NCBI GenBank assembly: GCA_001783335.1
Contig: MFLU01000010.1
Coordinates: 30,122 to 94,121 of the forward strand
Direction: 5' to 3'
Length of the DNA stretch: 64,000 nt
Origin: Candidatus Kaiserbacteria bacterium RIFCSPLOWO2_01_FULL_50_24
GTDB taxonomy: Bacteria; Patescibacteriota; Minisyncoccia; Phycocordibacterales; UBA2100
The position numbers were made by a program, and so were the translations under genes. Below, piece after piece: positions 1,655-61,144 of this stretch (position 1 is its first letter; each line of letters begins with the position of its first letter). The notes under the pieces were generated by a model, which did no database searches, had not been told where the DNA came from, and saw only the letters and a list, made by a program, of their open reading frames with translations.

Positions 1655-2755
1655 ATGCCTGCTATGGCAAGTCAAGCCAGCACCGTGTATGTTGGTTTAT
1701 CGGGTGGGGTTGATTCCGCTGTTTCAGCGGCGCTCCTCAAAGAGCGAGGATTTACGGTCGTCGGTGTATTCATAAAAATCTGGCAGCCGGAATTTATTGA
1801 ATGCACATGGGAGCGCGATAGGTTAGACGCAATGCGCGTGGCCGCGCATCTCAACATTCCGTTCCGTGAGATTGACCTCTCGGCAGAGTACAAACGGCAC
1901 GTGATCAATGAAATGATTGCCGGCTACACGCGAGGCGAGACGCCGAACCCCGACACACTTTGCAACGAGCGCATAAAATTCGGTTCGTTTTTCAACTGGG
2001 CGCGCACGGAGGGAGCCGACTTTGTTGCTACGGGTCACTATGCACAGATAATGCAAAAATCAAAAATCAAAAATCAAAATGACAATATAAAATCTAAAAA
2101 TCAACACCGACTCATACGCTCAAAAGACAAAGAAAAAGATCAGTCGTATTTTTTGTACGCGCTGACGCAGGAGAATCTTGCACACATTCTGTTTCCCGTG
2201 GGCGGAATGACGAAGCGCGAGGTGCGTCGCGCGGCGGAGCGTTTGCGCTTGCCGGTTGCAAAAAAGCAGGACAGCCAAGGACTTTGTTTTGTGGGCGATG
2301 TTTCCATGCGCGAATTTTTATCTCGCTATATTGCTATAGAGCGCGGCGATGTGGTTGATCTGGATGGGCGTGTGGTTGGAGAACACGAGGGCGCGGCACT
2401 TTACACGATAGGGCAAAGACACGGATTTTCACATGAGAAACAGACCGCCCTTCCGCACTATGTTGTTAGTGTTGATACTGTCCAAAACATCGTGCGCGTG
2501 TCGCCACGGCGCGAGGACGCAACGGTATCTGCTATCACCGTCGGCGATATCCATTGGATTTCCGGTAGTGACGACACGACTAGAGTAAAAGCGGTACAGA
2601 TACGCTATCGCGAAGTAGCATCGCCGTGCCGCACACTAACGCAAGAAACATGCGTTAGTGTGGAGATCATTGAGCCGCGCGTTGCGGCACCCGGCCAGGC
2701 GGCAGTATTTTTTAACGGTGAGGAATGTCTTGGTGGCGGAATCATCCACACATAA
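1655..2755 (+). CDS. mnmA: tRNA-specific 2-thiouridylase MnmA
   Basis: It has the PP-loop SGGVDS, ATGHY and KDQSYFLY motifs. The internal Met at 1655 (MPAMASQ) was chosen over the upstream start at 1451 of the ORF track. It contains a low-complexity insertion encoded by a heptamer repeat (CAAAAAT)x3 at 2054-2080. Confidence 0.9.
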   Translation: MPAMASQASTVYVGLSGGVDSAVSAALLKERGFTVVGVFIKIWQPEFIECTWERDRLDAMRVAAHLNIPFREIDLSAEYKRHVINEMIAGYTRGETPNPDTLCNERIKFGSFFNWARTEGADFVATGHYAQIMQKSKIKNQNDNIKSKNQHRLIRSKDKEKDQSYFLYALTQENLAHILFPVGGMTKREVRRAAERLRLPVAKKQDSQGLCFVGDVSMREFLSRYIAIERGDVVDLDGRVVGEHEGAALYTIGQRHGFSHEKQTALPHYVVSVDTVQNIVRVSPRREDATVSAITVGDIHWISGSDDTTRVKAVQIRYREVASPCRTLTQETCVSVEIIEPRVAAPGQAAVFFNGEECLGGGIIHT

Positions 2756-3227: not shown

Positions 3228-4061
3228 ATGTCATACATGCTTATCACCAAAGCAGACGGAGAGCAGGAGCCATTTAGCCCCGATAAACTACGCACATCAC
3301 TTCGGCGCGCGGGCGCGTCGAAAGATGCGGAACACAATATCGTGGAGCGTATTACCAATACTCTGCGTCCCCACATAACAACAGGAGACATTTATCGGCA
3401 GGCGTTTGACGAACTACGCCGTGTTGAGGAGAAACCGATTGCGGCTCGGTATTCCATAAAACGGGCGATTTTGGATCTCGGCCCCTCTGGGTTTCCGTTT
3501 GAACAATTTTTTGCAGAGGTGCTTCGCGCACATGGGTGGGTATGTCGCGTGGGAGTTGCTTTAACCGGCCGCTGTGCTCCGCACGAGGTGGATGTTGTTG
3601 CTGAGAAAAATGGAAAGCGCGTCGGCGTTGAGGCGAAATTTCATAACGACGCTGGTGGTAAGACCGACATCAAAGACGCGCTCTATGTGAAAGCCCGTTT
3701 TGACGACCTTCACAGTGCGCCGGAGAACTCTTCGCGAACAGACGAATACTGGCTAGTTACTAATACTCGCTTTACCAGAAACGCCATACGCTACGCGCAG
3801 TGCTCCAATCTGAATCTCATAGGCTGGGATTATCCGCGTTCGCGGAATTTATTGACGCTCATAGAAGAGGCGCACGTACACCCACTCACATGCCTTACCA
3901 CACTTTCAGAAGGCGAGAAAAAACGGCTACTGGATCAGCGAGTGGTACTTTGTAAAAGCGTTCAAACTCCGCATGTGTTGAAAGAACACGGCGTACAGCC
4001 AAATCGCATTCCCGAAGTGCTAGACGAAGCAAGGCGCTTGTGCGGCCCCCACACCTATTGA
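3228..4061 (+). CDS. ATP-cone domain protein fused to a restriction-endonuclease-like PD-(D/E)XK domain
   Basis: The N-terminus (MLITKADGEQEPFSPDKL...) is ATP-cone-like. The central segment FEQFFAEVLRAHGW...VDVVAEKNGKRVGVEAKF fits a D...E-x-K nuclease core of the Mrr/REase fold. Confidence 0.55.
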   Translation: MSYMLITKADGEQEPFSPDKLRTSLRRAGASKDAEHNIVERITNTLRPHITTGDIYRQAFDELRRVEEKPIAARYSIKRAILDLGPSGFPFEQFFAEVLRAHGWVCRVGVALTGRCAPHEVDVVAEKNGKRVGVEAKFHNDAGGKTDIKDALYVKARFDDLHSAPENSSRTDEYWLVTNTRFTRNAIRYAQCSNLNLIGWDYPRSRNLLTLIEEAHVHPLTCLTTLSEGEKKRLLDQRVVLCKSVQTPHVLKEHGVQPNRIPEVLDEARRLCGPHTY

Positions 4062-4183
4062 GGCATCGTGTTTTATTGCCAATCGTGGGTTAACCACTAA
4101 AACTTGTTTCAAAAGCATTGGCGGATATAGAGGTTTGGCGCACGAAAACACAGAGGGCAATTATGCCTCAATAGGTGTGGGGG
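4046..4183. repeat. Perfect 21-bp inverted repeat (cccccacacctattgaggcat / atgcctcaataggtgtggggg) enclosing 96 nt
   Basis: The arms are exact reverse complements at 4046-4066 and 4163-4183. The left arm overlaps the stop of the upstream gene. Confidence 0.85.
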
Positions 4184-4217
4184 CGTGGAACGTGATATAC
4201 TAATGGGGTACCACAAG

Positions 4218-4440
4218 TAAAAACTAAAAATGAAAAATGAAAAACGACCCCGCACCAAAAATCTCACCATTCCTCTTTATGCATTCAAACCACGTTCGCA
4301 GATTTTGGTACGGGGCATGCAATGAAAAATTAAAAGTTAGGCTCAAGGGTGCTCCCGACGGAATGTAACTTTTAACTTTTAACTTTTAACTTTTAACTTT
4401 TAACTGCAATTTTTACCTTTTCATTTTTACTTTTTAATTT
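4218..4440. repeat. Family-B-related AT-rich foldback element containing an (AACTTTT)5 tandem heptamer at 4367-4401
   Basis: The left arm aaaactaaaaatgaaaaatgaaaaacga and right arm ttttaccttttcatttttactttttaattt are inverted copies. The arm motif is shared with the repeats at 16251, 18171 and 18621. Confidence 0.7.
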
Positions 4441-4447
4441 ACATACC

Positions 4448-7009: not shown

Positions 7010-7766
7010 AACCCTAGAGGCGTCGCCTCTAGGATTTATCAGAACGAACTCTCAGTCTCCGTGTAATAGGTAGCGGCATCACGCAAGACAGATGAAAGTT
7101 TTGGAAGACCGTCTGCCAATATGTTGTATACATTGTCGTCTAATATCGCTCGTTCTACGCGTTCCAATCCGCAGTAGTCCGGCATGCTGGAAAAAGGATA
7201 ATTTAAAAGTTTGTGTTCCAGATTTTTAAAATCAGATACTTTTCCATGTTTCCAATTAGGTTCAAACTTTTCCGCCACATTCAGATGAATATATTGAAGA
7301 ACATGACGTAGGTACGTTTCGTCGTCAACATGCTTGGAACGAAACGGCTTCACAAATATATTGCCGACGCGCGAGCGTTTTTCATTAAAATACATTGCAT
7401 ATCCGGTTCCAAGTTTTTGCATGAATTTGGATATGCCTCTGTCTTCGATCTCTTGCATTAAAATATGGTAGTGGTTTGGCATGAGGGAGTATCCGCCAAT
7501 GGCGACGATATTTTGTTCACGAGGCAGTTGTAAGATATCGTGATGGGGCATATGTTGAAAATTTCCGCGAACAATTGGTTTCGTATCGTTCGACAAGTAC
7601 ATTAGCTCGACGAATCTGTTGCAGTCATCCCCGGTTTCAAAAGTGGTACGTTTGTCAATGCCACGATCAAAGCAGTGATACCACTCGTTGATGGCGAAAG
7701 GAGTGCGTCTATATCCCATACTAACCAACCATAACATAATCCTAGAGGCGTTGCCTCTAGGATTAC
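7008..7766 (-). mobile_element. REP-RAYT-REP unit: an IS200/IS605-like HUH (Y1) transposase gene flanked on both sides by the palindrome cctagaggcg(t/c)(c/t)gcctctagg
   Basis: REP copies lie at 7013-7033 and 7741-7761, a few nt outside the stop (7039) and start (7737) of the transposase ORF. A third copy is at 9657-9677. Confidence 0.65.
7039..7737 (-). CDS. REP-associated tyrosine transposase (RAYT) / IS200-like Y1 transposase
   Basis: The HUH motif LMPNHYHILM and a downstream catalytic-Tyr region (RHVLQYIHLNVAEK) match the Y1_Tnp family. The gene is flanked by REP palindromes. Confidence 0.65.
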   Translation of the reverse strand: MLWLVSMGYRRTPFAINEWYHCFDRGIDKRTTFETGDDCNRFVELMYLSNDTKPIVRGNFQHMPHHDILQLPREQNIVAIGGYSLMPNHYHILMQEIEDRGISKFMQKLGTGYAMYFNEKRSRVGNIFVKPFRSKHVDDETYLRHVLQYIHLNVAEKFEPNWKHGKVSDFKNLEHKLLNYPFSSMPDYCGLERVERAILDDNVYNILADGLPKLSSVLRDAATYYTETESSF

Positions 7767-7871: not shown

Positions 7872-9641
7872 ATGACGGTTGAGGCAACTTGGATTAAGAC
7901 CAAATGGAATCTTGGACTTCTATACGATTCGCTGACGGACCCAAGAATAGAGGAAGATATATCAAAACACGAGCGTGCGTTTGAGGACTTTGAAAGGCGG
8001 TATCGGAACGACACGGCGTATCTTGGAGATGTGGTCGCACTATGTATAGCGCTCCCGGACTACGAGTCTCTCTGGCGCGTGGGTAATTACAAACCCTTAC
8101 GCTATCTGTCGTTTGTAAACACGCTTGATAGCACAAACGCAGAGTGCAAAGCGCTCCAGCAAAAAATCACAGAACGTTTGGTGCGTGCTGGGAATCGCAT
8201 TAAATTTTTCCCGCTATCACTTGGAAAAATTTCCAAAGAAGCACAGGAGGCGTTTCTTGCAAGGGAATTACTGGCGCCGTATCGGTATTGGTTATCAAAA
8301 CTTTTTGAGGAAGCGCGACACAAACTCACAGAGCCGGAAGAGAAAATTCTTGCACTGAAAGCAAATACGTCAAGCGGAATGTGGACTTCGGGCGTGAAAA
8401 ACACCCTCAACAAGCAGGTTATCACGTTTGATGGCACAGAAATTCCTCTCAATGAAGCTGAAGGTAAAGTGTCAACGATACACGATACCGAAAAGCGCCG
8501 CGCCTTGTGGAGTGCGGTCATAGAAGGGTACCAGCGATTAGGTGATTTTGCGGAAAGCGAAATTAACGCCGTGTTCACCGACAAGAAAATCAACGATGAA
8601 TTGCGTGGGTACAAGGAACCGTACGATGCGACAATCCTCGGATACGAAAACAAAAGAGAAAGCGTGCTGGCGCTCGTAAAAACGGTAACCGAGAATTTTT
8701 CGGTAAGCCAGCGATTCTTCGAGGTCAAGTGCCGCATGCTTGCATTGCCGGAATTGACATATGCCGATCGTGGCGTGTCTCCGGGCCGTCAGATGCGTAG
8801 TTACTCATTTACCGAGTCGGTGCGGATTACTGAAAATGCCCTTGACCGCGCAGATCCAAGGTACGGAAACATATTTAGGGATTATCTTCGACACGGACAG
8901 ATAGATGTGTTTCCGCACGCGAACAGAGCTAGTGGCGGATTCTGCGCGGGCACGATAGATCTGCCGACCTTCATTTTCTTGAATCATGCGGACAACTTGC
9001 GCTCCTTGTCTACGTTGGCGCATGAGGTGGGGCACGGCATCCACTATGAACGCTCAAAGGTCCAATCGCCCATGTATCAACAATTTACGATACCGGTCGC
9101 GGAAACGGCCAGCACATTCTTTGAGGGCCTCGCGTTTAACCGAGCGATGAAAGAGATGGATGCGAGTGAGAAAGCGATAGCGCTTCACGAGCGGCTGAAT
9201 GGTGAAATTGCAACCATTTTCCGACAAATCGCCTTCTTTAACTTTGAGGAAGAATTACATCGCGCGGTGCGGGAAGACGGTTGGGTTACCAAAGAGGAAA
9301 TCGCGCGGATGCTCAACAGGCACACGGGGGCCTACATGGGCCCCACGATGAAATTGCGGGACGAAGACGGCTATTTCTTCATCACCGTGCCGCACTTCCG
9401 CTATATGTTCTACGTGTATTCATATGCGTATGGTCAATTGATAAGTCGGGCTCTCGTGCGACGGGTCCAAAATGACTCTGCGTACATCAAGCAGGTAGAT
9501 CGGTTTCTCTCTGCTGGCGGAAGTCAAAAGCCCGAGCACATATTTGCCGACATCGGCATTGAAGTAAACGAGGAGTTTTTCCGCGAGGGCATCGCGGAAA
9601 TTGAAAAAGACCTCTCGGAACTTGAGCAACTGGTTGCGTAA
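7872..9641 (+). CDS. pepF: Oligoendopeptidase F (M3B family metallopeptidase)
   Basis: It has the HEVGHGIH zinc motif and PepF-like length. The start at 7872 has a GGGAG RBS and was preferred over the upstream ORF-track start. Confidence 0.85.
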   Translation: MTVEATWIKTKWNLGLLYDSLTDPRIEEDISKHERAFEDFERRYRNDTAYLGDVVALCIALPDYESLWRVGNYKPLRYLSFVNTLDSTNAECKALQQKITERLVRAGNRIKFFPLSLGKISKEAQEAFLARELLAPYRYWLSKLFEEARHKLTEPEEKILALKANTSSGMWTSGVKNTLNKQVITFDGTEIPLNEAEGKVSTIHDTEKRRALWSAVIEGYQRLGDFAESEINAVFTDKKINDELRGYKEPYDATILGYENKRESVLALVKTVTENFSVSQRFFEVKCRMLALPELTYADRGVSPGRQMRSYSFTESVRITENALDRADPRYGNIFRDYLRHGQIDVFPHANRASGGFCAGTIDLPTFIFLNHADNLRSLSTLAHEVGHGIHYERSKVQSPMYQQFTIPVAETASTFFEGLAFNRAMKEMDASEKAIALHERLNGEIATIFRQIAFFNFEEELHRAVREDGWVTKEEIARMLNRHTGAYMGPTMKLRDEDGYFFITVPHFRYMFYVYSYAYGQLISRALVRRVQNDSAYIKQVDRFLSAGGSQKPEHIFADIGIEVNEEFFREGIAEIEKDLSELEQLVA

Positions 9642-9656
9642 CGCGCATCCAAAAAC

Positions 9657-9677
9657 CCTAGAGGCGTCGCCTCTAGG
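9657..9677. repeat. Third copy of the REP palindrome cctagaggcgtcgcctctagg, downstream of pepF
   Basis: It matches the copy at 7013-7033 exactly. Confidence 0.9.
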
Positions 9678-9751
9678 ATTATGAGTGGTTTGACCGACTA
9701 TATTCTTCACCCTCGTGGCACACGCGCCGCGGGGGTGATATTCTTTGTGTT

Positions 9752-11572: not shown

Positions 11573-11587
11573 ATCTTTATAGACTTT

Positions 11588-11623
11588 TTATGCCATGGCA
11601 TAAAAAGTCTATACACAGACAAT
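11588..11623 (+). terminator. Perfect 36-bp palindrome (tatagactttttatgcc|atggcataaaaagtctata) immediately after alaS
   Basis: A 16-bp stem follows 16 nt after the alaS stop. It could act as a terminator in either direction. Confidence 0.6.
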
Positions 11624-14569: not shown

Positions 14570-14779
14570 ATGACCGAACCGCAACTAAAAGAGGGAATTG
14601 TAGACGAGGCGCTGCCGAACGCTCTTTTTCGCATAAAGCTAAAAGAAGGGGGTGAACTCGTGCTTGCGTACCTCGCCGGCAAAATGCGTCTCCACAGAAT
14701 TCGCGTACTTCTTGGTGATCGCGTTGAGCTCCAAATGGACCCGTATGGCGGGCGAGCGAGAATAGTGAAGCGCCTATAG
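14570..14779 (+). CDS. infA: Translation initiation factor IF-1
   Basis: The 69-aa protein has an S1-like fold sequence and a full-length match to the IF-1 pattern. Confidence 0.95.
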
Positions 14780-14794
14780 TGGGGCGCTTCGTCG

Positions 14795-14896
14795 GCACAC
14801 CTGTTTGGGAGACCGCTCACGCCTCGCTCCAGTTTTGTCTTTCAGCAAAACTGGAGCGAGGCTCCACTACGGTTAAGTCTCCCAAACAGGTGTGCC
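14795..14896. repeat. Nested perfect palindromes between infA and rpmJ (outer 20-bp arms ggcacacctgtttgggagac, inner 17-bp arms gcctcgctccagttttg)
   Basis: The exact reverse-complement arms are 14795-14814 with 14877-14896, and 14821-14837 with 14847-14863. Confidence 0.85.
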
Positions 14897-15016: not shown

Positions 15017-15131
15017 CATGAAAGTTAAAGCATCGGTGAAGAAAATTTGTCAGCACTGCCGCCATGTGCGCCGGCGAGGGCGATTACGGGTTATTTGCAA
15101 GAATCCGAGGCATAAGCAGAGACAGGGGTAG
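15017..15131 (+). CDS. rpmJ: 50S ribosomal protein L36
   Basis: The translation [37 protein letters not shown] matches L36. Confidence 0.9.
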
Positions 15132-15240
15132 CTTCTAGCTTTGAGCTTCTAGCTTCTAGGAAAAACCTGGAGGTTGGAAGCTCCAAGTCAGGGGCACAAA
15201 GTAAAAACCTATAAGCTAAAAGCTAGCACCTAGAAGCTAT
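15132..15240. repeat. Family-D intergenic repeat (agcttctag units, ending ...cctagaagctattc)
   Basis: Other copies lie at 44909-45001 and as a fragment inside leuS at 50228-50269. Confidence 0.75.
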
Positions 15241-15245
15241 TCATT

Positions 15246-15626
15246 ATGCGTATCTCCGGTATTACAATCCCAGAAAATAAGCGGCTTGAGATAGGCCTCA
15301 CGGCGGTGTATGGTGTGGGGCGGCCACGCGCGCGCGCCACACTTGCGCTACTTGGTATTGACTCGGGCGCGCGCCCGAAGGATTTGTCACAAAAAGAGGA
15401 AGGCGCGCTTCGAGAGGCGGTAGAGAAAAATAAGGTGGAGGGCGAGTTGAAGCGTTTTATTTCAGCCAACATTCGGCGGCTTAAAGACATCAAGGCGTAT
15501 CGAGGAGGGCGCCATGCAAAACGACTTCCGGCTCGGGGACAGGGAACTAAAACAAACTCGCGCACCGTGCGCGGCAATGTGCGAAAGACGATGACCTCAG
15601 GCAAACGCAAATTAGAAAAGACATAA
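15246..15626 (+). CDS. rpsM: 30S ribosomal protein S13
   Basis: The N-terminus is MRISGITIPENKRLEIGLTAVYGVGR. Confidence 0.95.
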   Translation: MRISGITIPENKRLEIGLTAVYGVGRPRARATLALLGIDSGARPKDLSQKEEGALREAVEKNKVEGELKRFISANIRRLKDIKAYRGGRHAKRLPARGQGTKTNSRTVRGNVRKTMTSGKRKLEKT

Positions 15627-15639
15627 TATGTGCCAATCT

Positions 15640-15800
15640 GCAAATATATTTCAACCTGCAAATGGCTACGAATTTACAAAAAGCACCAAATTCCAAGCAC
15701 CAAATCACAATGAACAAAATACAAAATACAAAACAAAATACGTTTGAGACATTAGGATTTAGAATTTCGGTATTGTTTGGAATTTGGGATTTGTAATTTG
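15640..15800. repeat. Family-C intergenic repeat (ccaagcaccaaatcacaa ... tttggaatttg-gatttgtaatttg)
   Basis: Its ends are shared with 23305-23455 (inverted orientation) and 30271-30410, with fragments at 46903-46958 and inside leuS at 50612-50686. Confidence 0.75.
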
Positions 15801-15815
15801 TTATTTTCCTTATCT

Positions 15816-16250
15816 ATGGGTAAAAAACGCATAATTCGAAAAAGCGGCGGCTCGGTAGACCAAGGCCTTAAATCGAGGTCGTTAGCTCGTGTTGCAAAAA
15901 AGAACATGCTCGCCGGTACTCTTCATATTCAGGCAACGTACAACAACACAAAGGTACTGCTTGCCGATAAGGAGGGCAACACGGTTGCGTGGTCGTCTTC
16001 CGGAGCACTCGGATTCTCCGGCGCAAAGAAAGGAACACCGTTTGCGGCGGCGAAAGTTGGAGAGCTCATTGGTGAGAAAGCAAATATCATCGGCGTTAAA
16101 GAGGTTGATGTAGTTATTCGGGGCGTCGGTGCAGGTAGGGAATCGGCCTTGCGCGCGTTTGCGTCAAAAGGAGTTGACGTATCGCGCATAAGAGACAATA
16201 CCCCCATTCCGCACAATGGGCCGAGACCGCCGAAGCCACGCAGAGTTTAA
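15816..16250 (+). CDS. rpsK: 30S ribosomal protein S11
   Basis: The sequence MGKKRIIRKSGG...LHIQATYNNT matches S11. The start was set at the internal Met rather than the ORF-track start. Confidence 0.95.
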   Translation: MGKKRIIRKSGGSVDQGLKSRSLARVAKKNMLAGTLHIQATYNNTKVLLADKEGNTVAWSSSGALGFSGAKKGTPFAAAKVGELIGEKANIIGVKEVDVVIRGVGAGRESALRAFASKGVDVSRIRDNTPIPHNGPRPPKPRRV

Positions 16251-16378
16251 ATTAAAAACTAAAAGTGAAAAATGAAAAACGACAACTTAAAATGTAAAAC
16301 CACACACACGCTTCTCGGAAGTTTTTAACTTTTCATTGTCGTTTTTAGATTTTCATTTTAAATTTTAAACTTGTTATT
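16251..16378. repeat. Family-B intergenic foldback repeat (arms aaaaatgaaaaacgacaa / ttgtcgtttttagattttcattt, core cacacgcttctcgg)
   Basis: It is nearly identical to 18621-18748, and a truncated copy lies at 18171-18266. Confidence 0.8.
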
Positions 16379-16993
16379 ATGTTGCCCATCAAATCAAAAT
16401 ACAAAATCGCCAAGCGCCTTGGCGCGCATATCTTTCCGCAAACGCAAACGCAGAAGTTTGCGCTTTCCGAAGCGCGCACAAAAAAGCAGAAATCACACAA
16501 ACGTGCCGGTTCAGATTTTAGTAAACAGCTCTTGGAAAAACAGCGTGTTCGCTACACGTACGGTCTTTCGGAGCGCCAACTTTCAAATTATGCGGCACGC
16601 GCTATGAAAGATCCAAATCCGCCGCAGGCGCTTCATCGAGCGTTTGAGTTGCGCCTGGATAGCGTAGTATACCGCGCGGGGTTCGCGCACACGCGGCGCT
16701 CGGCGCGCCAGAGTACCTCTCACGGACACTTCACAGTGAATGGGCGACGCGTGACGACTCCCTCGTTTCAGCTGTCCTTGGACGATGTGGTCGCCGTGCG
16801 AGAGGGAAAGACGAGAGCGTCTCCGCTCTTTTCTGCCCTTACTTCAAACGAGGGAGAAGATATTCGCGCGATACCGAGCTGGCTTTCGGTAGACATATCT
16901 CTCCTCCAGACGACCGTCTCGTCTCTGCCGGAATATACTCAAACGGAGGGAGGCCTTGAGTACCCGCTTGTCTTTGAGTACTACAGCAGATAA
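16379..16993 (+). CDS. rpsD: 30S ribosomal protein S4
   Basis: It shows the S4 N-terminal pattern and S4-domain region. Confidence 0.95.
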   Translation: MLPIKSKYKIAKRLGAHIFPQTQTQKFALSEARTKKQKSHKRAGSDFSKQLLEKQRVRYTYGLSERQLSNYAARAMKDPNPPQALHRAFELRLDSVVYRAGFAHTRRSARQSTSHGHFTVNGRRVTTPSFQLSLDDVVAVREGKTRASPLFSALTSNEGEDIRAIPSWLSVDISLLQTTVSSLPEYTQTEGGLEYPLVFEYYSR

Positions 16994-17201
16994 GATTTTC
17001 TTTCGAGCGGAGTGAGTTAGAAACAACCTTACCCGGCACCTTTTCTATCCACCTATGATATCTACTACCTTGCACAACATGGGATGCTATGTTACGATGG
17101 TTTCTTAATGTGCAAACCCGCACAAAAGGTGTCGGGTGTAAGTTTTTGTAACTCATACATACTCACTTTAGTTCGTATTTATTCATAACAAAATCTAACA
17201 C

Positions 17202-18170
17202 ATGTCTGACTACCACATCGCCCTACCTAGCAAACCGCGCATTGTCTCTGAGTCAGAGACCAGCGGTTCATACGAAATAGACGGCTTGTATCCAGGATAC
17301 GGCTACACACTCGGCAATTCTTTGCGGAGGATTATTTTGTCTTCCTTACCCGGCGCCGCGATTACCCATGTAAAAATCCCTGGGATTTCGCATGAATTTT
17401 CCACCATAGAAGGAGTGCGCGAAGATGTGGTGACTTTACTTCTCAACGTACGAAAAATTCGTTTGCGTCTTGTTTCCGATGAACCGCAAACACTCACACT
17501 ATCAGTAAAGGGTCCCAAAGAGGCCACTGCGGCAGATATTACCACTCCGGGGCAAGTGGAGGTTCTGAATCCGGAACAGCACGTAGCAACCATAAGTAGC
17601 AAGACAACGCTAGAGATGGAGCTGCATGCAGAGCGCGGCTTGGGATATGTGCCTAAAGAGGTGCACCAAAAAGAGCGCGTGGATATCGGAACTATCGCGC
17701 TTGATGCAGTGTTCTCTCCTATTCGCCGCGTAAACTACGAGGTGGAGAACATGCGCGTTGGTGATAGAACGGACTTCAACAGATTGCGCATCTTTATAGA
17801 AACGGATGGAACCATTACGGCGCACGAAGCGCTCACGCGCTCTATTGAGACCATGATTCACCAATTGAAGGCGGTCGTTGGATTTAAGGAAGAAGAGGAG
17901 GTGCCGCAAGAAGTGGTTGCGGCCGGCGAGTTGCCCGCCGTGCGAGAAGATAGACTCTCTGCTGACGCCGAGCTCTTAAAAACGCGCATATCGGAGCTGA
18001 AGCTTTCGGCACGTGTTGAGGATGCGCTTAATGAAGCATCTATTCGCACAGTGGGCGGATTGGTACGGAAGCGTGAAGATGACCTTCTGGCGATAGAGGG
18101 ACTGGGGCAAAAGGGGTTGCAGGATATTAAGAGAGCACTTTCAAATTTAGGGCTCACTTTGAGGCAATAG
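17202..18170 (+). CDS. rpoA: DNA-directed RNA polymerase subunit alpha
   Basis: It has the LYPGYGYTLGNSLRRIILSSLPGAA motif and an alpha-CTD helix-hairpin-helix at the C-terminus. Confidence 0.95.
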   Translation: MSDYHIALPSKPRIVSESETSGSYEIDGLYPGYGYTLGNSLRRIILSSLPGAAITHVKIPGISHEFSTIEGVREDVVTLLLNVRKIRLRLVSDEPQTLTLSVKGPKEATAADITTPGQVEVLNPEQHVATISSKTTLEMELHAERGLGYVPKEVHQKERVDIGTIALDAVFSPIRRVNYEVENMRVGDRTDFNRLRIFIETDGTITAHEALTRSIETMIHQLKAVVGFKEEEEVPQEVVAAGELPAVREDRLSADAELLKTRISELKLSARVEDALNEASIRTVGGLVRKREDDLLAIEGLGQKGLQDIKRALSNLGLTLRQ

Positions 18171-18266
18171 AAATTAAAAATGTAAAACCGAATACACGCT
18201 TCTCGGCAGTTTTTAACTTTTCATTGCAACTTTTAGATTTTCATTTTAAATTTTTAACTTACTACC
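18171..18266. repeat. Family-B repeat, truncated copy
   Basis: It shares cacgcttctcggcagtttttaacttttcattg...tttagattttcattttaaattt. Confidence 0.75.
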
Positions 18267-18620
18267 GTGCGTCATCACAATAAAAACAGAATACTGGGTC
18301 GCACAAAAAGGCAACGTACAGCGCTTTTACGCGGCTTGGCGCGTTCACTTGTGCTTCACGGCGCCATTGTGACTACCGAGGCGAAAGCAAAAGAGCTTCG
18401 TCCGTTCATAGAGCGTGTTGTCACAGATGGTAAGAAGAAGACGCTTGCCTCACGTCGTTCCGTGACGACCAAGCTGGCTAGCTCACGTGAAGCGACTCAA
18501 AAACTTTACGAAACGTACGCGACACGTTTCATAAACCGCGCAGGCGGATATACGCGCATTGTAAAACTCGGGACACAAGGTAAGCGTGTGGGCGAAATGG
18601 CGAGGATAGAGTTTGTATAA
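18267..18620 (+). CDS. rplQ: 50S ribosomal protein L17
   Basis: The translation matches L17. Confidence 0.95.
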   Translation: MRHHNKNRILGRTKRQRTALLRGLARSLVLHGAIVTTEAKAKELRPFIERVVTDGKKKTLASRRSVTTKLASSREATQKLYETYATRFINRAGGYTRIVKLGTQGKRVGEMARIEFV

Positions 18621-18748
18621 ATTAAAAACTAAAAGTGAAAAATGAAAAACGACAATTTAAAATGTAAAACGGCACACACGCTTCTCGGCAGTTTTTAACT
18701 TTTCATTGTCGTTTTTAGATTTTCATTTTAAATTTTAAACTTGTTGTT
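18621..18748. repeat. Family-B repeat, full copy
   Basis: It is nearly identical to 16251-16378. Confidence 0.8.
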
Positions 18749-19093
18749 ATGTTTGAATACAAAATAAATGCAACAGGGAAATCTCTCGGGCGTGTTGCGT
18801 CCGAGGCCGCTAAAGCGCTCATTGGGAAAACAAGCGCCGAATATACGCCGCGCATTCCTTCTCGCGTGCGTGTTACCATAGAGCACGCCGCTAAAATCTT
18901 TATGACGGAACGGAGAAAGCGGGACATTAACACGCGTTACTCCGGTTATCCGAGTGGCTTAAAACGAGAAACTCTCGGCGCGCTTGTTGGGCGCCGCGGC
19001 ATAGAAGAAGCGCTCCGCATAGCGGTGAAGGGTATGCTCCCGCGCAACCGTCTTTTAGTGGGGAGAATGAAAAAACTTATCGTCAGTGAGTAA
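18749..19093 (+). CDS. rplM: 50S ribosomal protein L13
   Basis: The translation matches L13. Confidence 0.95.
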   Translation: MFEYKINATGKSLGRVASEAAKALIGKTSAEYTPRIPSRVRVTIEHAAKIFMTERRKRDINTRYSGYPSGLKRETLGALVGRRGIEEALRIAVKGMLPRNRLLVGRMKKLIVSE

Positions 19094-19111: not shown

Positions 19112-19507
19112 ATGGTGAAAGAACACACATATACGGAGGGGATTGGACGGCGGAAGACCGCGAGTGCGCGTGTGCGTATTGAAAAAGCAAAAAACGCGTC
19201 GCTAATCGTCAACAACAAGAAAGCGGATGAATACTTTCCGCTTGCCGCTATGGTAAAGACTGCCTATGCGCCCTTGAGTTCTCTCAATGCCCACTATGCA
19301 GTATCCGCGCATGTTTCCGGTGGGGGTCATAAAGCACAGGCAGAAGCCGTGCGTATGGGAATTGCGCGCGCAATCGTGAAGGTGGATGGCGAACAAAGAA
19401 AGCAGCTAAAGGTGTTGGGATTTTTGAAACGCGACCCGCGCGCCAAGGAACGCAAGAAATTCGGCCTAAAGGCGGCGCGCCGAGCTCCCCAGTGGTCTAA
19501 GCGGTAG
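19112..19507 (+). CDS. rpsI: 30S ribosomal protein S9
   Basis: The translation matches S9 and ends ...RRAPQWSKR. Confidence 0.95.
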   Translation: MVKEHTYTEGIGRRKTASARVRIEKAKNASLIVNNKKADEYFPLAAMVKTAYAPLSSLNAHYAVSAHVSGGGHKAQAEAVRMGIARAIVKVDGEQRKQLKVLGFLKRDPRAKERKKFGLKAARRAPQWSKR

Positions 19508-23292: not shown

Positions 23293-23304
23293 TACCACTG
23301 ACGT

Positions 23305-23455
23305 AATAAATAACAAATTACAAACCTCAAATTCCAAACAAATTCAAATAACCGAAATCACAAATTCAAAACTGGTACGTCGTGTTTTGTATTTAGTAAT
23401 TAGAATTTAGATATTTTGATATTTTTTGTGATTCGGTACTTGGAATTTGGTGCTT
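23305..23455. repeat. Family-C intergenic repeat (inverted relative to the copy at 30271)
   Basis: It contains ggtacgtcgtgttttgtatttagtaattagaattt, the reverse complement of the segment at 30310-30345. Confidence 0.75.
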
Positions 23456-23530
23456 TTTAGAAATTTGTAACCACTTGTAGTATTCGTATCATTTGCAGAT
23501 CGGCCATAATTTTCGTAGTAGTATATTGCC

Positions 23531-29328: not shown

Positions 29329-30270
29329 CTACCAATGCAACGACTCTTGACCGGACTTCAGCCCTCGGGCGCGCTTCACATCGGGAATTATTTTGGAGCG
29401 TTGAAACCGTTCGTTGATTTGTATGGCGACTACGAGAGCTCTCTTTTGGTGGTGGATTACCACGCTCTGACGACGCTCAAAAACCCAGAGGAACTTCGGC
29501 AGAACATTGTGAACGTGGTGAAGGATTATCTCGCAGTTGGTGTGGACCCGAAGAGGGCGACCATTTTTAAGCAATCGGACGTACCGGAGCATACGGAACT
29601 TGCGTGGATTTTTGAGACGCTCGTTACCGTGCCGTTTTTGATGCAGGCGCACGCATATAAAGACAAGGTGGCGAAAGGGCTTGAAGCGAATGCCGGACTT
29701 TTCAACTACCCAATGCTCATGGCGGCAGACATTCTTTTATACGACATTGACGTAGTGCCGGTCGGCGCCGATCAGCGTCAGCACATTGAATATGCGCGCG
29801 AAGCGGCGGCGAAGTTTAACGAAACATTCGGAGAAACATTCAAAGAGCCGAAAGAGCGCATTTTGGAATCAGTTGCGACCGTTCCGGGCACGGACGGGCA
29901 AAAAATGAGCAAGAGTTATGGCAACACCATTCCTCTTTTCGGAACAAAAGATGAAATCGCGAAAGCGGTGATGAGTATTGTTACCGACTCGTCCGGCGAG
30001 AGCCCAGAGCACGTATACAACATTCACTCGCTTTTCAAAGAGAGGGGAGAGCTTGGGGCGCTATACAAGGCAAATAAGGGAAACTACAAGGCGAGCAAAG
30101 AGGCGCTCGTTGAGGACATTGAAGCGACGGTTGCTCCTATGCGCGAACGCCGTGAATCAATTTCAGACGACGAGGTGCGCACCGTACTTGCCGAGGGGGC
30201 AGAGAAAGCGCGCGAGCGCGCGAGTAAAAAAATGACCGAGGTGCGGAAGAAGATTGGTGTTATGATTTAA
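29329..30270 (+). CDS. trpS: Tryptophanyl-tRNA synthetase
   Basis: It has the HIGH-class motif GALHIGNY and KMSKS. Confidence 0.9.
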   Translation, partial: LPMQRLLTGLQPSGALHIGNYFGALKPFVDLYGDYESSLLVVDYHALTTLKNPEELRQNIVNVVKDYLAVGVDPKRATIFKQSDVPEHTELAWIFETLVTVPFLMQAHAYKDKVAKGLEANAGLFNYPMLMAADILLYDIDVVPVGADQRQHIEYAREAAAKFNETFGETFKEPKERILESVATVPGTDGQKMSKSYGNTIPLFGTKDEIAKAVMSIVTDSSGESPEHVYNIHSLFKERGELGALYKANKGNYKASKEALVEDIEATVAPMRERRESISDDEVRTVLAEGAEKARERASKKMTEVRKKIGVMI

Positions 30271-30410
30271 AATCCCAAGCACCAAGCACCAAATCACAAA
30301 CAATATCTAAATTCCAATTACTAAATACTAAACACGACGTACCCATTTTGAATTTGTTATTTCGGTGATTTGAATTTGTTTGGAATTTGTTATTTGTAAT
30401 TTGGAATTTA
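30271..30410. repeat. Family-C intergenic repeat
   Basis: See the entry at 15640. Confidence 0.75.
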
Positions 30411-30412
30411 TT

Positions 30413-31750
30413 ATGTCAAGTATGGAACGTACTCTCATAAAAAATCTCTCGGAAAATATCGGGAAAGCCGTCTCGGTAAGCGGCTGGGTATCGGTACGGC
30501 GCGACCAGGGAAAACTCGTATTTTTTGAGATTCGCGACCGTTCTGGAAGCGTACAGGGGGTGGTGTTGCCAAAGTCCGATGCCATTGAGGCGGCAAAGGG
30601 GGTGCGCCCGGAGTATGTCGTTTCCATATCAGGCCAAGTGAATAAACGACCGGAAAAAAATGTGAACCCGAATGTACAAAATGGCGATATTGAGCTTGAG
30701 ATACAAGAAATTGAGATACTTTCTAAAGCGGAGACACCGTTTGAGCTTGGTGCCGAGCTCAACCTTGATACCTATTTAGACCATCTGCCATACACCGTAC
30801 GCTCGCCACGGGCGCGAGATATTTTTGCCCTGCAGGCGACCATCATAGAGGCGTTTCGCGACTCGCTCCGTAAACGCGATTTCGTTGAATTTCAGGCACC
30901 GGCAATCGTAGGAGGCGATGCCGAGGGTGGCGCCGCCGCGTTTAAGGTTGATTACTACTACGACCAAAAGGCGTACCTTGCCACAAGTCCCCAGCTCTAT
31001 AAGCAGATCATGGTTGGCGCGTTTGAGAGAGTATTCACAACACCGAAGATTTGGCGGGCGGAAAAACACGCTACCCCCCGCCATCTTTCCGAGCTCACAC
31101 AAATGGATTTTGAGATGGGATTCATCAAAGACCATTTTGATGTGATGGATGCGCTTGAAACCACCATGCGTGATGTGGTAGCGGTCGTGCGCCACAAGCA
31201 CGCCGACGCACTTCAGCGTTTCAATGTTGAATTGCCCAAGCTTCCTAATGAGAAGTTTCCGATACTCAAACTGAAAGAGGCGCAAGAGTTGCTCGGCGTA
31301 CCGCATGAGCCAGATCTTGAACCCGAGCAGGAACGACTGCTTCACGAGTGGGCGCTTAAAGAGCACGACTCAGATTTTGTTTTTGTAACACATTTTCCTA
31401 CATCCAAGCGTCCGTTCTATACATATGAAGACCCGGAAGATTCCGGCCATACACGTTATTTTGACCTGCTTTTCCGCGGGCTCGAAATAAACTCCGGTGG
31501 TCAGCGCGTGCATGAGCACGATGTGCTTGTGGAACGCATTAGACAAAAGGGGTTAGACCCGGAAAAATTCGCTTTTTATTTGCAAACATTCAAAGTGGGC
31601 ATGCCACCTCACGGCGGGTGCTCCACTGGCCTAGAGCGCTTAACTGCGCGCATGTTGGGACTTGCAAACATTCGTGAAGCCACTCTCTTCCCGCGCGATA
31701 TGACCCGTATTGACGCTCGCTTATCGGAAAATACGGAAGAAGAAACATGA
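30413..31750 (+). CDS. aspS: Aspartyl-tRNA synthetase, archaeal/short class IIb type (an AsnRS assignment cannot be excluded)
   Basis: It has an OB-fold N-terminus, class II motifs (FRAEDxxxxRH-like, GGCSTGLERL), and a length of about 445 aa. Confidence 0.85.
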   Translation: MSSMERTLIKNLSENIGKAVSVSGWVSVRRDQGKLVFFEIRDRSGSVQGVVLPKSDAIEAAKGVRPEYVVSISGQVNKRPEKNVNPNVQNGDIELEIQEIEILSKAETPFELGAELNLDTYLDHLPYTVRSPRARDIFALQATIIEAFRDSLRKRDFVEFQAPAIVGGDAEGGAAAFKVDYYYDQKAYLATSPQLYKQIMVGAFERVFTTPKIWRAEKHATPRHLSELTQMDFEMGFIKDHFDVMDALETTMRDVVAVVRHKHADALQRFNVELPKLPNEKFPILKLKEAQELLGVPHEPDLEPEQERLLHEWALKEHDSDFVFVTHFPTSKRPFYTYEDPEDSGHTRYFDLLFRGLEINSGGQRVHEHDVLVERIRQKGLDPEKFAFYLQTFKVGMPPHGGCSTGLERLTARMLGLANIREATLFPRDMTRIDARLSENTEEET

Positions 31751-33203: not shown

Positions 33204-33274
33204 TGTCAACCCAGCACTAATCCCGCCTGGGCGGGATTAGTGCTGGGTAAAAATTGCGATACAATTACATCTAT

Positions 33275-40196: not shown

Positions 40197-41569
40197 CGCC
40201 AAAGTACAAAAAACACAGATTGCACAAAGTACGAACAAAATACAGAGCACAGGAACCGAAAACGCAAACGAATACAAGCAGTTTGTGCTTTGTGTTTTTA
40301 ATCGTTTGTGTTTTGTTTGTGTCCTGGTTCCTGTACTTTTTGCTTTTCGCCACAGTTTCAGCGCAAACGCGGGAAGAACTTGAGAGCGACATTGCTAAAT
40401 ACAACAAGCAGATAGAAGAACTGGATAAAGAAATCGCCCAGTACGAGCGTGAGCTCACAGAGATAGGCACACAAAAGCAAACGCTTCAGAGCATCGTTGA
40501 CGGACTGGATCTTCAGAGAAGACAGCTCCAAGTAAAAATACGCTCCACGAGAAGTAAAATAGGTACATTAGAACTTGAAATAGAACGACTGGACGAAAAC
40601 ATCGGAAACAAAGAGGTTCTTATAGGACACGGCATGGAAGCGCTCGGAGAGACCATACGCTCCATAGACCGCGCTGATCGTCAGAGTTTTGTGGAAACGG
40701 TGCTTGGCGGAGGCACTGTAACGTCGTTGTGGGACGCCGTGGAGACCGTGCAGAAAGTCCAGCTTGCCGTGCGGGAGAATATCACCGCGCTAATGCGCGC
40801 CAAAGAATCTCTGGCCGAAAACCGCACCGTCTCCGAAAAGAAACACTCCGAACTTTCTGCAGAAAGAAGAACGCTTTCCTCGCAAGAGCAGTCATTGGCC
40901 ATCACCGCACGAGAGCAGAAGAATCTCCTGGATGACACGAAGTCGCAGGAGTCCGCGTATCAGGCCACCGTGGAGCAGAAACAAGCGGAAAAAGTGGCGT
41001 TTGAAGCCGCGCTTTTTGAACTCGCATCCGCACTTGAATACACATTTGACCCAAGCCGTATTCCACCGCCAGGCAAGGGAATTCTACGCTGGCCTCTGGA
41101 CAACGTTTTCGTCACACAAGAATTCGGAAAAACATCTTCTTCTGGACGTCTTTACGTTTCGGGCACTCATGACGGTGTGGACTTTCGCACAAAGACGTCC
41201 TCTAATCCTTCTGGGATAGGAACGCCAATAAAGGCCGCACTTTCTGGAATCGTTCTGGAGGTAAATCACGGCGCGGTGCCTTATTGTCAGTATGGAAAAT
41301 GGATACTTATACGCCACAGTAACAATTTAACAACTCTTTACGCACATCTTTCAGACATCGCCGTAAAAAAAGATAGCACTGTCGCAACAGGTGAAATCAT
41401 AGGATACTCAGGTAATAGTGGCTATGCGACCGGTCCGCATCTCCACTTCACCGTGTACGCATCAGATGCGCTATCTTTCAGGGACCACAAATGTAACAGT
41501 GGCAAAACCGTCGCCATCCCCATCGCCGCGCCGACAGGATACCTGAATCCGTTAGATTATTTGAATTAA
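40193..41569 (+). CDS. M23-family metallopeptidase with an N-terminal coiled-coil (EnvC/NlpD-like murein endopeptidase)
   Basis: The C-terminal LytM domain has HxxxD and HLHF motifs. A basic N-region plus hydrophobic segment (signal/anchor) is encoded by the family-E repeat. Confidence 0.8.
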   Translation: MTPKYKKHRLHKVRTKYRAQEPKTQTNTSSLCFVFLIVCVLFVSWFLYFLLFATVSAQTREELESDIAKYNKQIEELDKEIAQYERELTEIGTQKQTLQSIVDGLDLQRRQLQVKIRSTRSKIGTLELEIERLDENIGNKEVLIGHGMEALGETIRSIDRADRQSFVETVLGGGTVTSLWDAVETVQKVQLAVRENITALMRAKESLAENRTVSEKKHSELSAERRTLSSQEQSLAITAREQKNLLDDTKSQESAYQATVEQKQAEKVAFEAALFELASALEYTFDPSRIPPPGKGILRWPLDNVFVTQEFGKTSSSGRLYVSGTHDGVDFRTKTSSNPSGIGTPIKAALSGIVLEVNHGAVPYCQYGKWILIRHSNNLTTLYAHLSDIAVKKDSTVATGEIIGYSGNSGYATGPHLHFTVYASDALSFRDHKCNSGKTVAIPIAAPTGYLNPLDYLN

Positions 41570-44908: not shown

Positions 44909-45001
44909 AGCTTTTAGGTTTCAGTTATTAGCTTAATAGAAAACCATACATGTTATTTTCCCACACCTAGAAGCTAGAAGCTAGTACCTAGAAGCTATTC
45001 C
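44909..45001. repeat. Family-D intergenic repeat
   Basis: It ends with cctagaagctattc, like the copy at 15132-15240. Confidence 0.75.
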
Positions 45002-45360: not shown

Positions 45361-45461
45361 TATACCTGCGTCACATACACTAATTATTCACGACTGTGAA
45401 TAATTAGTGTATGAGAAAAGTGACAAAAAGACCCCGCTAATAACGCGGGGCCGACAAGATG

Positions 45462-46902: not shown

Positions 46903-46954
46903 AGTTTTGGTATTTGATATTGTTATTTATTTGGAATTTGTGTTTTGTAATTTG

Positions 46955-59342: not shown

Positions 59343-59382
59343 AAACACACTCTCAATATCTTAAGATATTGAGAGTGTGTTT
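59343..59382. promoter_or_regulatory. Perfect 40-bp palindrome (aaacacactctcaatatc-ttaa-gatattgagagtgtgttt), about 85 nt upstream of the PNPOx-like gene
   Basis: It has 18-bp exact arms around a TTAA centre, which could be an operator-like site or a bidirectional hairpin. Confidence 0.6.
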
Positions 59383-59873
59383 ACTGGCGACATAGAGCGA
59401 GTGAAATGAAAATGTACTCATTTGCATTTCCGAGCCGAGCCCACACACTTACTTTTGGTTTTCGCTTTGCGCGTTCTGGCAAGCCAAAACAAACCGAAAG
59501 TAAGTGTGTGGGCCGCGGAGGGAGACAACCGGTGTTTAACGCCCCGTGGTCTCGCAATGCGCCGGTTTACGCGTCATTTTTTCTGCCACCACTACACCAT
59601 AATATAACGACACTACACATCTGAGCCGGTCGGCCCAGATGTGTAGTGTGTGGTTCGGTGACTATGCAGGCAAAGGAATTGACGAGTAGACAGATATGCA
59701 CGGCCTATACTGACAGCCTATACCAGAACAACTCACTTTCGAAATCGTCGCGTGTTATTCTTGTGAAAGAGAAAGATAATGGATTGTTGTGGTTGTAATC
59801 ACCGGGTTGATCGTGGGGATATTCATTGTGAACTGAAAGAGCGTACCGGCACTGCAGTGCCGGTCTTTTTTTG

Positions 59874-60470: not shown

Positions 60471-60671
60471 TGTGTTCTATTGTACCTGCGATACCAGAAA
60501 ACACAACCCGCACACTTACTCTGGCATTGCTTTTAATTCTGCCGACCGAACCATGTTGGTAGAGCGATTTTTATGAGATAACACAAGGTCAAGCACTGAA
60601 TATGTTGAAAAAGCAGAATAATGCCAAAGTAAGTGTGCGGGAAAGACACCAAGCGCAAGTAAGTGTGCGGG

Positions 60672-60986
60672 CTACGCGCGACAGGAAGCAAGAAAGCAGA
60701 GCGCCTGCACGTTGTCCTCACTCATTTGACGCGTTGGGCGCTTCGCGCCACATGTTGTGCATCGGTGAATAATGCGGTAGGTTGGACTCGAGCCCTCCAC
60801 GCGCGTTGGTTCCATCAAACCACCGCACTTGTTTGCCCTATCGCCGGGTTCGTTGTCCACATGTTTACTCCATAAACAACGCGGACAGTGATTGGTATAG
60901 CCGTTCCCCTTTACATCAAGACCACACCTATCACACGCGAAATCTTCAACTTGTTTTATGAAAACCATAGGTATAAGCAAATCCAA
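60672..60986 (-). CDS. RNHCP-domain zinc-ribbon protein
   Basis: It has CDRCG...TNHCPRCLWSKHVD...YRIIHRCTTCG. Confidence 0.6.
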   Translation of the reverse strand: MDLLIPMVFIKQVEDFACDRCGLDVKGNGYTNHCPRCLWSKHVDNEPGDRANKCGGLMEPTRVEGSSPTYRIIHRCTTCGAKRPTRQMSEDNVQALCFLASCRA

Positions 60987-61122
60987 ATTTCAAAGCTCAA
61001 ATGTCAAATAAAATCCAAAACTTAAATATCAAAAAGCCTGCGGTACAAAGAATTGTATGTGTTTAGTCATTTGGATTTTGGGCTTGGTTTGAACTTTGGA
61101 TTTTGTCATTTGGATTTAAACT
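60979..61122. repeat. Family-A MITE-like foldback element, second copy
   Basis: It matches 54 of 55 positions of 591-645. Confidence 0.75.
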
Positions 61123-61144
61123 ATTTGAACTTCTTGGTATGCAT

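Follow-up and report, generated by a model that had tools for sequence, protein, structure and literature searches.

We analysed a 64,000-nt stretch of the genome of Candidatus Kaiserbacteria bacterium RIFCSPLOWO2_01_FULL_50_24 (the window, by which we mean the whole stretch) and found that the spacers of its ribosomal-protein/rpoA operon are filled by foldback repeats and hairpins. We consider it probable that these fillers are lineage-specific, non-autonomous foldback repeats with arms made of heptamer arrays, that they behave like miniature inverted-repeat transposable elements (MITEs) or like hairpins formed by repetitive extragenic palindromic (REP) sequences (REPINs), and that they are tolerated between a stop and a start codon or in protein loops and erode in steps of 7 nt. 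The elements are derived and fall into multi-copy families; they lie in both orientations, include truncated, nested and in-frame coding copies, have family C relatives in other organisms, are periodic and gave no signal at the RNA level. An initial annotation of this DNA had offered MITE-like elements as one option, and these properties fit it.

The operon lies on the plus strand in the order infA (14570-14779), rpmJ (15021-15131), rpsM (15246-15626), rpsK (15816-16250), rpsD (16379-16993), rpoA (17202-18170), rplQ (18267-18620), rplM (18749-19093) and rpsI (19112-19507), followed by grpE, dnaK and dnaJ. Its eight spacers from infA to rpsI measure 238, 114, 189, 128, 208, 96, 128 and 18 nt, and seven of the eight are filled by a repeat or a hairpin. 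The same operon was retrieved from 85 other species, in which the medians of these spacers are 20, 23, 24, 19, 47, 19, 5 and 6 nt. The gene order and the unusually wide gaps described in the initial annotation were thereby borne out, with spacers from infA to rplM of 96-238 nt versus medians of 5-47 nt. The extra spacer DNA amounts to about 0.7 kb (767 nt in six spacers versus summed medians of about 120 nt). RpoA and LeuRS showed 100% identity to their counterparts in Candidatus Kaiserbacteria bacterium RIFCSPHIGHO2_01_FULL_50_13, where the locus is on MFMH01000013.1 (GCA_001783485.1). Because independent assemblies from several samples gave the exact sequence of the window, the operon repeats are not an assembly artefact.

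The infA/rpmJ spacer holds a GC-rich compound hairpin (14794-14896; -75.6 kcal/mol, z -11.6) with a perfect outer stem of 20 bp (14794-14813 / 14877-14896) and a perfect inner stem of 17 bp (14821-14837 / 14846-14862). A family D foldback (15129-15240; -48.8 kcal/mol, z -5.9) fills the rpmJ/rpsM spacer; the arms repeat the heptamer AGCTTCT / AGAAGCT in tandem, with a lag-7 autocorrelation of 0.71-0.80, its left end contributes the rpmJ stop codon TAG, and its right end lies 5-6 nt upstream of the rpsM ATG. The rpsM/rpsK spacer is occupied by a plus-strand copy of family C (15627-15815, termed C15k), which folds weakly (z -2.5) and consists of a 5' arm of the form (CAAANNN)n and a 3' arm of the form (NNATTTG)n, with the conserved right terminus of the family, TTGTTTGGAATTTG...TTTGTAATTTGTTATTT, at about 15771-15806. 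Three plus-strand copies of family B follow. B1 (16251-16372; z -2.4), in the rpsK/rpsD spacer, directly follows the TAA stop codon and stops 6 nt short of the rpsD ATG; B2 (18171-18260; z -0.09, no fold; 89% identity over 84 nt) lies in the rpoA/rplQ spacer, and B3 (18621-18742; z -2.75) in the rplQ/rplM spacer. B1 and B3 share 96-97% identity across some 130 nt, and B2 is a family B element lacking 35 nt (exactly five heptamers) of the left arm, deleted between TTAAAA direct repeats. The family B core CACGCTTCTCGGCAGTTTTTAAC had three matches in the window, where none was expected. The rpsD/rpoA spacer contains a further hairpin (17013-17155; -51.4 kcal/mol, z -5.5) with 32-nt arms that are 75% complementary and an inner hairpin.

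These results confirmed the shared core of family B and its three copies starting at 16251, 18171 and 18621, as well as the placement of families D and C. The claim of a recognisable repeat in each gap held for families B, C and D and overlooked two hairpins (14794-14896 and 17013-17155). The description of every repeat as a long imperfect foldback fitted less evenly when the segments were folded: family D folded strongly, B1, B3 and C15k only modestly to weakly with z about -2.5, and B2 had no fold at all.

Further copies were found outside the operon, and the copy numbers that follow refer to the 64-kb window. Family D has a second copy at 44909-45000 (92% over 36 nt). A B-like element on the plus strand (4215-4445) has terminal B-type arms (4215-4248 and 4410-4445), the 24-nt ends of which are 92% complementary; these arms surround two other hairpins and a (TAACTTT)5 heptamer array (4360-4395), which makes the element nested or composite. 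Two further full copies of family C are C23k (23293-23530, minus strand) and C30k (30268-30421, plus strand). They share 90% identity over 117 nt, and a metagenome contig (L120) matches C30k at 93% over 142 nt. All three full copies lie in plus-strand operons, yet C23k has the opposite orientation to C15k and C30k. A single-arm fragment of family C (46903-46954, plus strand) that forms no hairpin makes up the entire spacer upstream of rplI. Family E has one copy at 589-775 and a second at 60975-61128 (87.5% over 136 nt); the latter reads directly on the plus strand and is therefore opposite to its own minus-strand operon. A family K foldback with heptamer-periodic arms lies at 40197-40352. In total, family B has three copies plus the B-like element, family C three full copies and two fragments, and families D and E two copies each. 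Relative to transcription, families C and E are found in both orientations. An inverted-repeat scan detected 20 strong foldbacks in the window versus 0-2 in block-shuffled sequence, and all 20 are confined to the non-coding 16.7%.

Comparison with relatives indicated that the operon elements are derived insertions. At loci with an RpoA 79-85% identical to that of the window, the spacers at the B, C and D positions are 2-26 nt long, compared with 96-189 nt in the window. In the closest relative found (L012; RpoA 86%), the rpsK/rpsD spacer is empty (16 nt), and unrelated hairpins occupy two other spacers. A BLAST search of the window elements against 84 related alpha-operon loci gave a single match, 27 nt of family D (AGCTTCT heptamers) in a Taylorbacteria spacer (L064). 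Within the strain itself, 28 overlapping contigs from other samples were nearly clonal, and the four differences among them were three single-nucleotide polymorphisms, two of which lie in repeat elements, and a 20-nt indel. The contig with the indel (L003), which represents one assembly, matches the window over 8969 nt apart from the absence of exactly 14793-14812, the left 20-nt arm of the infA/rpmJ outer stem. Since the indel corresponds to exactly one arm of a perfect inverted repeat, the pattern produced by template switching, it may reflect the gain or loss of an arm by that process.

Pieces of the same repeats lie in frame inside two protein genes. In leuS (minus strand), repeat-derived in-frame segments fall within 50239-50672. 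The family D fragment (50239-50258) coincides with a 4-aa insertion, and the family C arm (50644-50672) lies within a 10-aa insertion with diverged flanks; both insertions are missing in 11 homologues. A third leuS fragment, from family E, is located at 51922-51937. In mnmA, an A-type heptamer array (2055-2104, plus strand) is in frame and coincides with a 12-aa insertion, QKSKIKNQNDNI, and two Parcubacteria homologues lack this insertion. The copies in coding sequence are fragments or single arms only, and neither leuS nor mnmA contains a whole palindromic element. As a separate observation on the host protein, a NUDIX domain (PF00293) is inserted in this LeuRS (49769-52645, minus strand) and in over 100 Parcubacteria homologues among the matches listed, and some LeuRS homologues are 1100-1550 aa long with extra hydrolase domains.

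Family C extends well beyond this genome. A scan of metagenome contigs with the right-terminal motif detected at least 117 contigs from many environments, many of which hold a full element of about 140 nt at 70-93% identity. Flanking proteins assigned some of these contigs to Nealsonbacteria or unclassified Patescibacteria, and judging by such proteins the family C contigs that could be placed belong to the candidate phyla radiation (CPR). Two contigs with a T-type array only encode proteins named after metagenome-assembled genomes of Aminicenantes and Deltaproteobacteria. Family C, a B-like arm and one of the GC-rich hairpin families of the window recur in one relative (Ga0155795_102 and Ga0155795_116). 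In co-directional spacers of the metagenome contigs, 18 copies were in the sense and 11 in the antisense orientation. The arm-complementarity score of family C was 13-17 for the arms of the same copy versus 36-51 between copies, and copies reached 90% identity over 117 nt; this excess of copy-to-copy identity over own-arm complementarity fits the copying of a master element that was already imperfect. Nucleotide conservation of family C is far above expectation for neutral spacer DNA in organisms so diverged. In an alignment of 20 diverged copies, the heptamer cores CAAA and TTTG were invariant and the three intervening positions varied; the predicted pairing consists of CAAR/YTTG mini-helices of 3-5 bp, mostly split by 3-nt mismatched positions, and the ends of the element are only loosely complementary. 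For family B, a core scan gave no match in species-representative genomes, the Joint Genome Institute (JGI) metagenome collection or viral contigs. It also failed to return core-bearing JGI contigs that were known from a protein look-up, so the B-core scans are uninformative on genome-wide copy number.

The arms share a common architecture. For families B, C, D, E and K, the mean autocorrelation of the arms was 0.58 at lag 7 and 0.52 at lag 14, versus 0.35 in shuffled arms, and lag 7 was the best lag in 23 of the 24 arms of the window families. The units are CAAANNN or AAAAANN in the 5' arm and the complements (NNNTTTG type) in the 3' arm, with AGCTTCT in family D. Only the (TAACTTT)5 stretch is an exact tandem array; all other units are degenerate and arranged as inverted arrays. 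The 7-nt periodicity is not general, as lag 7 was best in 40 of 220 arms of Parcubacteria hairpins at large; it is typical of the window genome and some others. Families B, C and D are thus better described as sequence variants of one class with heptamer-array arms, and the GC-rich perfect hairpins as a second class. The three families of the initial annotation persist as distinct sequence families within a single architecture, to which the GC-rich class must be added. Contigs L153 (near 8060-8100) and L133, from other organisms with C-type arrays, contain long exact heptamer or 14-mer arrays, for example (CAGTATA)6 and (GGGGTTTGGAATCT)n.

Such arms would also result if palindromes or terminator-like hairpins had grown in place, extended by 7-nt slippage and intra-strand template switching, with gene conversion accounting for the likeness between loci. 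The lag-7 signal, the loss of exactly five heptamers from B2, the strain variant differing by one 20-nt arm as a template switch gives, and the presence of perfect GC-rich stems alongside decayed AT-rich ones are all in line with growth in place, and heptamers are reported to be the most frequent of the long simple-sequence-repeat units of prokaryotes (Mrazek 2007, as cited in PMC4679880). However, this explanation does not account for 90-97% identity over 117-130 nt at unlinked loci, which includes the non-periodic loop, for full-length family C copies at 70-93% identity in other organisms, or for own-arm complementarity below copy-to-copy identity, and the 20-nt variant comes from one assembly. 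We therefore regard growth in place as a rather unlikely origin of the elements and favour their dispersal as repeats.

Several observations weigh against dispersal by a MITE-like route. No target-site duplication was recognisable at the B, C or D junctions, where TA/TAA ends are inseparable from stop codons and AT-rich sequence, and no clean terminal inverted repeat could be defined in these AT-rich periodic elements. The window contains no transposase with matching ends; its Y1 enzyme (see below) is flanked by a different, low-copy palindrome. All family B copies have a single orientation. With the sampled population essentially clonal, none of the 28 contigs revealed a presence/absence polymorphism of a whole element. 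Family C has a left arm, CCAAGCACCAAATNACAAACAA, whose sequence is conserved despite its lack of complementarity to the right arm; this points to recognition of the sequence by a specific partner, for instance a transposase or other binding protein. Hairpin sequences of their own also fill the spacers in a minority of other Parcubacteria (L086 and L093, Nomurabacteria; L064, Taylorbacteria; L017, Kaiserbacteria UBA10103), meaning that several unrelated lineages have put their own hairpins into the same operon spacers. Finally, the foldbacks have a polarity that is symmetric with respect to the strand: the A-rich arm was on the 5' side in 81 cases and the T-rich arm in 24 (89 sequences, namely 88 loci and the window; p 2e-8), and among metagenome matches the ratio was 20 to 1. 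This polarity could reflect a functional or mechanistic constraint rather than selfish spread. One transposon family with fixed ends would explain the polarity of family C but not obviously that of unrelated hairpins, and we therefore kept it as evidence for the rival explanations.

One of these is that the elements serve the operon as cis-acting RNA or single-strand signals. In that case a protein covering about 7 nt (of the cold-shock-domain or S1 type) would bind the phased (NNAUUUG)n / (CAAAUNN)n units cooperatively, or the stop-to-start hairpin would hide the next start codon until the cistron before it has been translated, which would couple translation in a genome without visible Shine-Dalgarno sites. 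In five spacers the elements span from the stop codon to 5-9 nt upstream of the next start, and no Shine-Dalgarno-like sequence was visible by eye upstream of any operon gene or in the compact relatives. The use of the same spacers by independent lineages with different hairpins, the non-random, strand-independent polarity of the arms and the invariant CAAA/TTTG cores of family C would also be expected of such sites, and heptamer direct repeats upstream of start codons have been proposed as S1, Csp or CsrA sites in Beggiatoaceae (PMC4679880). On the other hand, close relatives lack the elements, copies occur in both orientations and within coding sequences, B2 and the rplI spacer retain one arm only, and ancestral spacers of just 5-20 nt would lead to the stop-to-start anatomy in any case.

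Tests at the RNA level did not favour a role of this kind. The sense strand was not better folded than the antisense strand (28 versus 44 of 72 well-folding operon spacers of all species; p 0.03, in the wrong direction), and a test for G-U enrichment likewise gave no bias towards the sense strand. In the 20-sequence family C alignment, none of the 20 predicted pairs showed a two-sided change, and the covariation term was +0.05 kcal/mol; the right arm was fixed by the search pattern, which limited the power of this test. The covariation check suggested in the initial annotation was thus negative. The window had no Rfam match at the gathering threshold, and a permissive search returned chance matches to microRNA hairpins (E at least 0.45). 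The proposal that the repeats are RNA processing or stabilising hairpins consequently found no support from sense bias, covariation or Rfam; these analyses were computational only, and the elements may nonetheless affect the RNA. Taken together, we consider a cis-acting role unlikely.

Three other candidate interpretations were rejected. An 18-aa ORF in family B (MKNDNLKCKT..) is incidental and is destroyed in B2. JGI called a 44-aa ORF within C15k, but the opposite orientations of family C copies preclude its conservation. TIGR-Tas arrays do not apply, as the elements are isolated rather than arrays with spacers, and no Tas gene lies nearby.

If the hairpins were intrinsic terminators or attenuators, they would divide the operon into separately controlled units, and the A-rich 5' arm and U-rich 3' arm do resemble the architecture of a bidirectional terminator. 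By eye, a promoter-like sequence (TTGCAT-17-TACATT) was noticed between the first hairpin and rpmJ. However, U-runs after the stems are absent from the sense strand: only 5 of 85 operon hairpins had at least six T in the 10 nt downstream, and the mean was 2.5 T. A scan of the operon for promoter and terminator consensus sequences stayed at background level, with no site at the elements and the sole good promoter upstream of grpE. The stems of B and C are weak, and close relatives have no such elements. The attenuators suggested in the initial annotation therefore lacked a U-tail and any terminator hit in this computational analysis, and we consider this explanation very improbable.

The window also encodes a RAYT-like (REP-associated tyrosine transposase) enzyme of the Y1 (HUH) type on the minus strand (ORF 7039-7737, 232 aa; 7010-7766 with its flanks), identified by Pfam and by its predicted structure, and a fourth explanation is that the elements are a REPIN-type population mobilised by it. 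The protein passed the Pfam Y1_Tnp model (28 bits, cut-off 23), matched the NCBIfam RAYT model weakly (35 bits, cut-off 80) and retains both the HUH motif (HYH) and the tyrosine in YIHLN. The best match of its predicted structure (pLDDT 88.5) was 4ER8, a REP-associated tyrosine transposase (E 2.5e-4), followed by the TnpA proteins of IS608 and ISDra2; sequence searches against the PDB with the single sequence and with a 20-sequence profile were empty. A 24-nt palindrome, CCTAGAGGCGTYGCCTCTAGGATT, lies on both sides of the gene (7013-7036 and 7741-7764), and a third copy is found 1.9 kb away (9657-9680). Among its 343 homologues, which are mostly from Kaiserbacteria and Paceibacterota, we examined four in different gene contexts; a palindrome of this type flanks them on one (L114) or both sides (L115-L117), and the outer stems covary.

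Y1 enzymes act on single-stranded DNA hairpins, and the family D heptamer GCTTCTA(GG) matches the palindrome stem GCCTCTAGG at eight of nine positions, which is a half-site only. However, the palindrome core GAGGCGWCGCCTC is low-copy, with three occurrences in 64 kb (7017, 7745 and 9661) that are no more than 2.7 kb from the gene; it was not found in families B, C and E, in the GC-rich hairpins or in the 84 alpha-operon loci of related species, and the operon elements are not doublets of short REP sequences. No other transposase, and no DDE transposase, was detected in the window, which makes the Y1 enzyme the sole candidate there for a hairpin-mobilising enzyme. We judge it improbable that the operon elements are its REPINs. 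Two of the homologue contigs also carry a MITE-like family of about 115-123 nt with conserved 14-nt terminal inverted repeats (AYCCCGTTAGAR...), at 3461-3583 and 18472-18593 in L115 and at 2186-2299 and 18006-18122 in L117. This family occurs twice per 20 kb, both genomes have the RAYT-like gene, and in L115 the ends of the family and the transposase-flanking palindrome have AGAGGC/GCCTCT in common.

Returning to dispersed foldback repeats as the favoured explanation, we suggest the following course of events. The elements would have entered the Kaiserbacteria lineage after its split from the relatives with compact operons and multiplied by copy-and-paste, through either transposition or recombination; mobility itself and the copying mechanism are what we infer. 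Insertions would have survived only in the few bases between a stop codon and the next start, or in frame in tolerant protein loops. Survival confined to the interval between stop and start would explain why the elements span it. Later decay and remodelling by slippage in a 7-nt register may have produced B2, and template switching may have added or removed a perfect stem arm (14793-14812). The elements are presumably co-transcribed with the operon and probably neutral, tolerated because they have no terminator tails and their AU-rich stems are weak; any effect on the mRNA would be a by-product and not the reason for their existence.

Among known systems, the closest parallels are the MITEs found inside transcription units, namely Neisseria Correia, enterobacterial ERIC/IRU and pneumococcal RUP/BOX elements. 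Like the window elements, these are non-coding, multi-copy imperfect palindromes of 100-250 nt that lie between genes of the same operon, are co-transcribed (as we presume here), occur in both orientations and are lineage-specific. The elements described here differ in that the window yielded neither a target-site duplication nor defined terminal inverted repeats nor a parent insertion sequence, the arms are internally 7-nt periodic, and the host is a reduced CPR genome. REP/REPIN-RAYT systems (Bertels and Rainey, PMC3116915; Ton-Hoang et al., 4ER8) likewise combine extragenic palindromes that form long hairpins with a palindrome-flanked RAYT-like Y1 gene in the same genome, but in the window the transposase palindrome is separate from the operon elements. 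Heptamer repeats, such as cyanobacterial STRR and the TAACTGA repeats of Beggiatoaceae, Cyanobacteria and Bacteroidetes (MacGregor 2015, PMC4679880), share the intergenic 7-nt unit and are often located directly upstream of starts without a ribosome-binding site, including those of ribosomal-protein operons, and occasionally in frame within genes. They are direct arrays of one exact heptamer, whereas the window elements have degenerate units in two inverted arrays, non-periodic cores and travel as units of 120-240 nt.

Rickettsia palindromic elements also place repeat sequence in frame in variable surface loops of housekeeping genes, as seen here in leuS and mnmA; in contrast to them, the coding copies in this genome are single arms or fragments of 20-80 nt rather than whole elements, and most copies are intergenic. 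Eukaryotic Foldback (FB) transposons have long inverted arms built of short tandem repeats. The resemblance to the window elements is architectural only, as the domain of life and the scale differ and we have no evidence of common ancestry or of an associated transposase. We found no paper describing such elements in CPR bacteria, and the nearest reports concern the heptamers of PMC4679880 and the REPIN-RAYT systems of PMC3116915. Two bolder readings can be formulated. The heptamer foldbacks might be a widespread CPR cis-element of fixed polarity (CAAANNN, then NNNTTTG; the T-type array is also present on contigs attributed to other phyla), the cores of which are read by a cold-shock/S1-type protein or a hairpin-specific Y1 enzyme and which organise translation restart or mRNA fate without Shine-Dalgarno sequences; or they might be the first bacterial counterpart of foldback transposons. 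We consider this speculation doubtful.

CPR genomes are usually called streamlined and repeat-poor, and here a highly conserved, tightly packed operon hosts dispersed foldbacks, while the same repeat vocabulary appears in frame in two essential enzymes, LeuRS and MnmA. The operon offers a natural experiment on the amount of spacer and structure that ribosomal-protein operons can bear under Shine-Dalgarno-independent translation. The elements may also represent a substrate set for the RAYT-like Y1 transposases of Kaiserbacteria and Paceibacterota and, if functional, would reveal an unrecognised mode of intercistronic control in CPR bacteria. In practical terms, heptamer-array foldbacks define a repeat class that can be mistaken for small ORFs or RNA genes and that breaks metagenome assemblies, because contigs of the same strain often end inside the repeat elements: contigs L005, L008, L009, L103 and L106 end at window positions 14791, 16343, 16346, 18223, 40336 and 14818.

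Some minor observations concern other hairpins and repeats of the window. Three GC-rich foldbacks (4045-4184, 59436-59515 and 60507-60641) have near-perfect arms of 22-23 nt and a common CCCNCACACYTA-like motif, and the type at 59.4 kb is present in one relative (L172 and L164) at 84-91% identity. The sequence CACACAC is common to several hairpins and enriched outside genes, as 13 of its 17 occurrences are non-coding. Five short perfect or near-perfect palindromes lie just downstream of genes (11578-11613, 33209-33248, 45371-45416, 59343-59382 and 59610-59649); with arms of 18-21 bp, loops of 0-4 nt and no T-tail, they form a class distinct from the heptamer foldbacks. Ribosomal protein L13, the product of rplM, is short, at 114 aa versus 117-121 aa in close relatives. 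Three overlapping 135-nt copies (62-70% identical) make up a 45-nt-period tandem repeat (1055-1324) within a minus-strand ORF of some 200 aa without a Pfam match.

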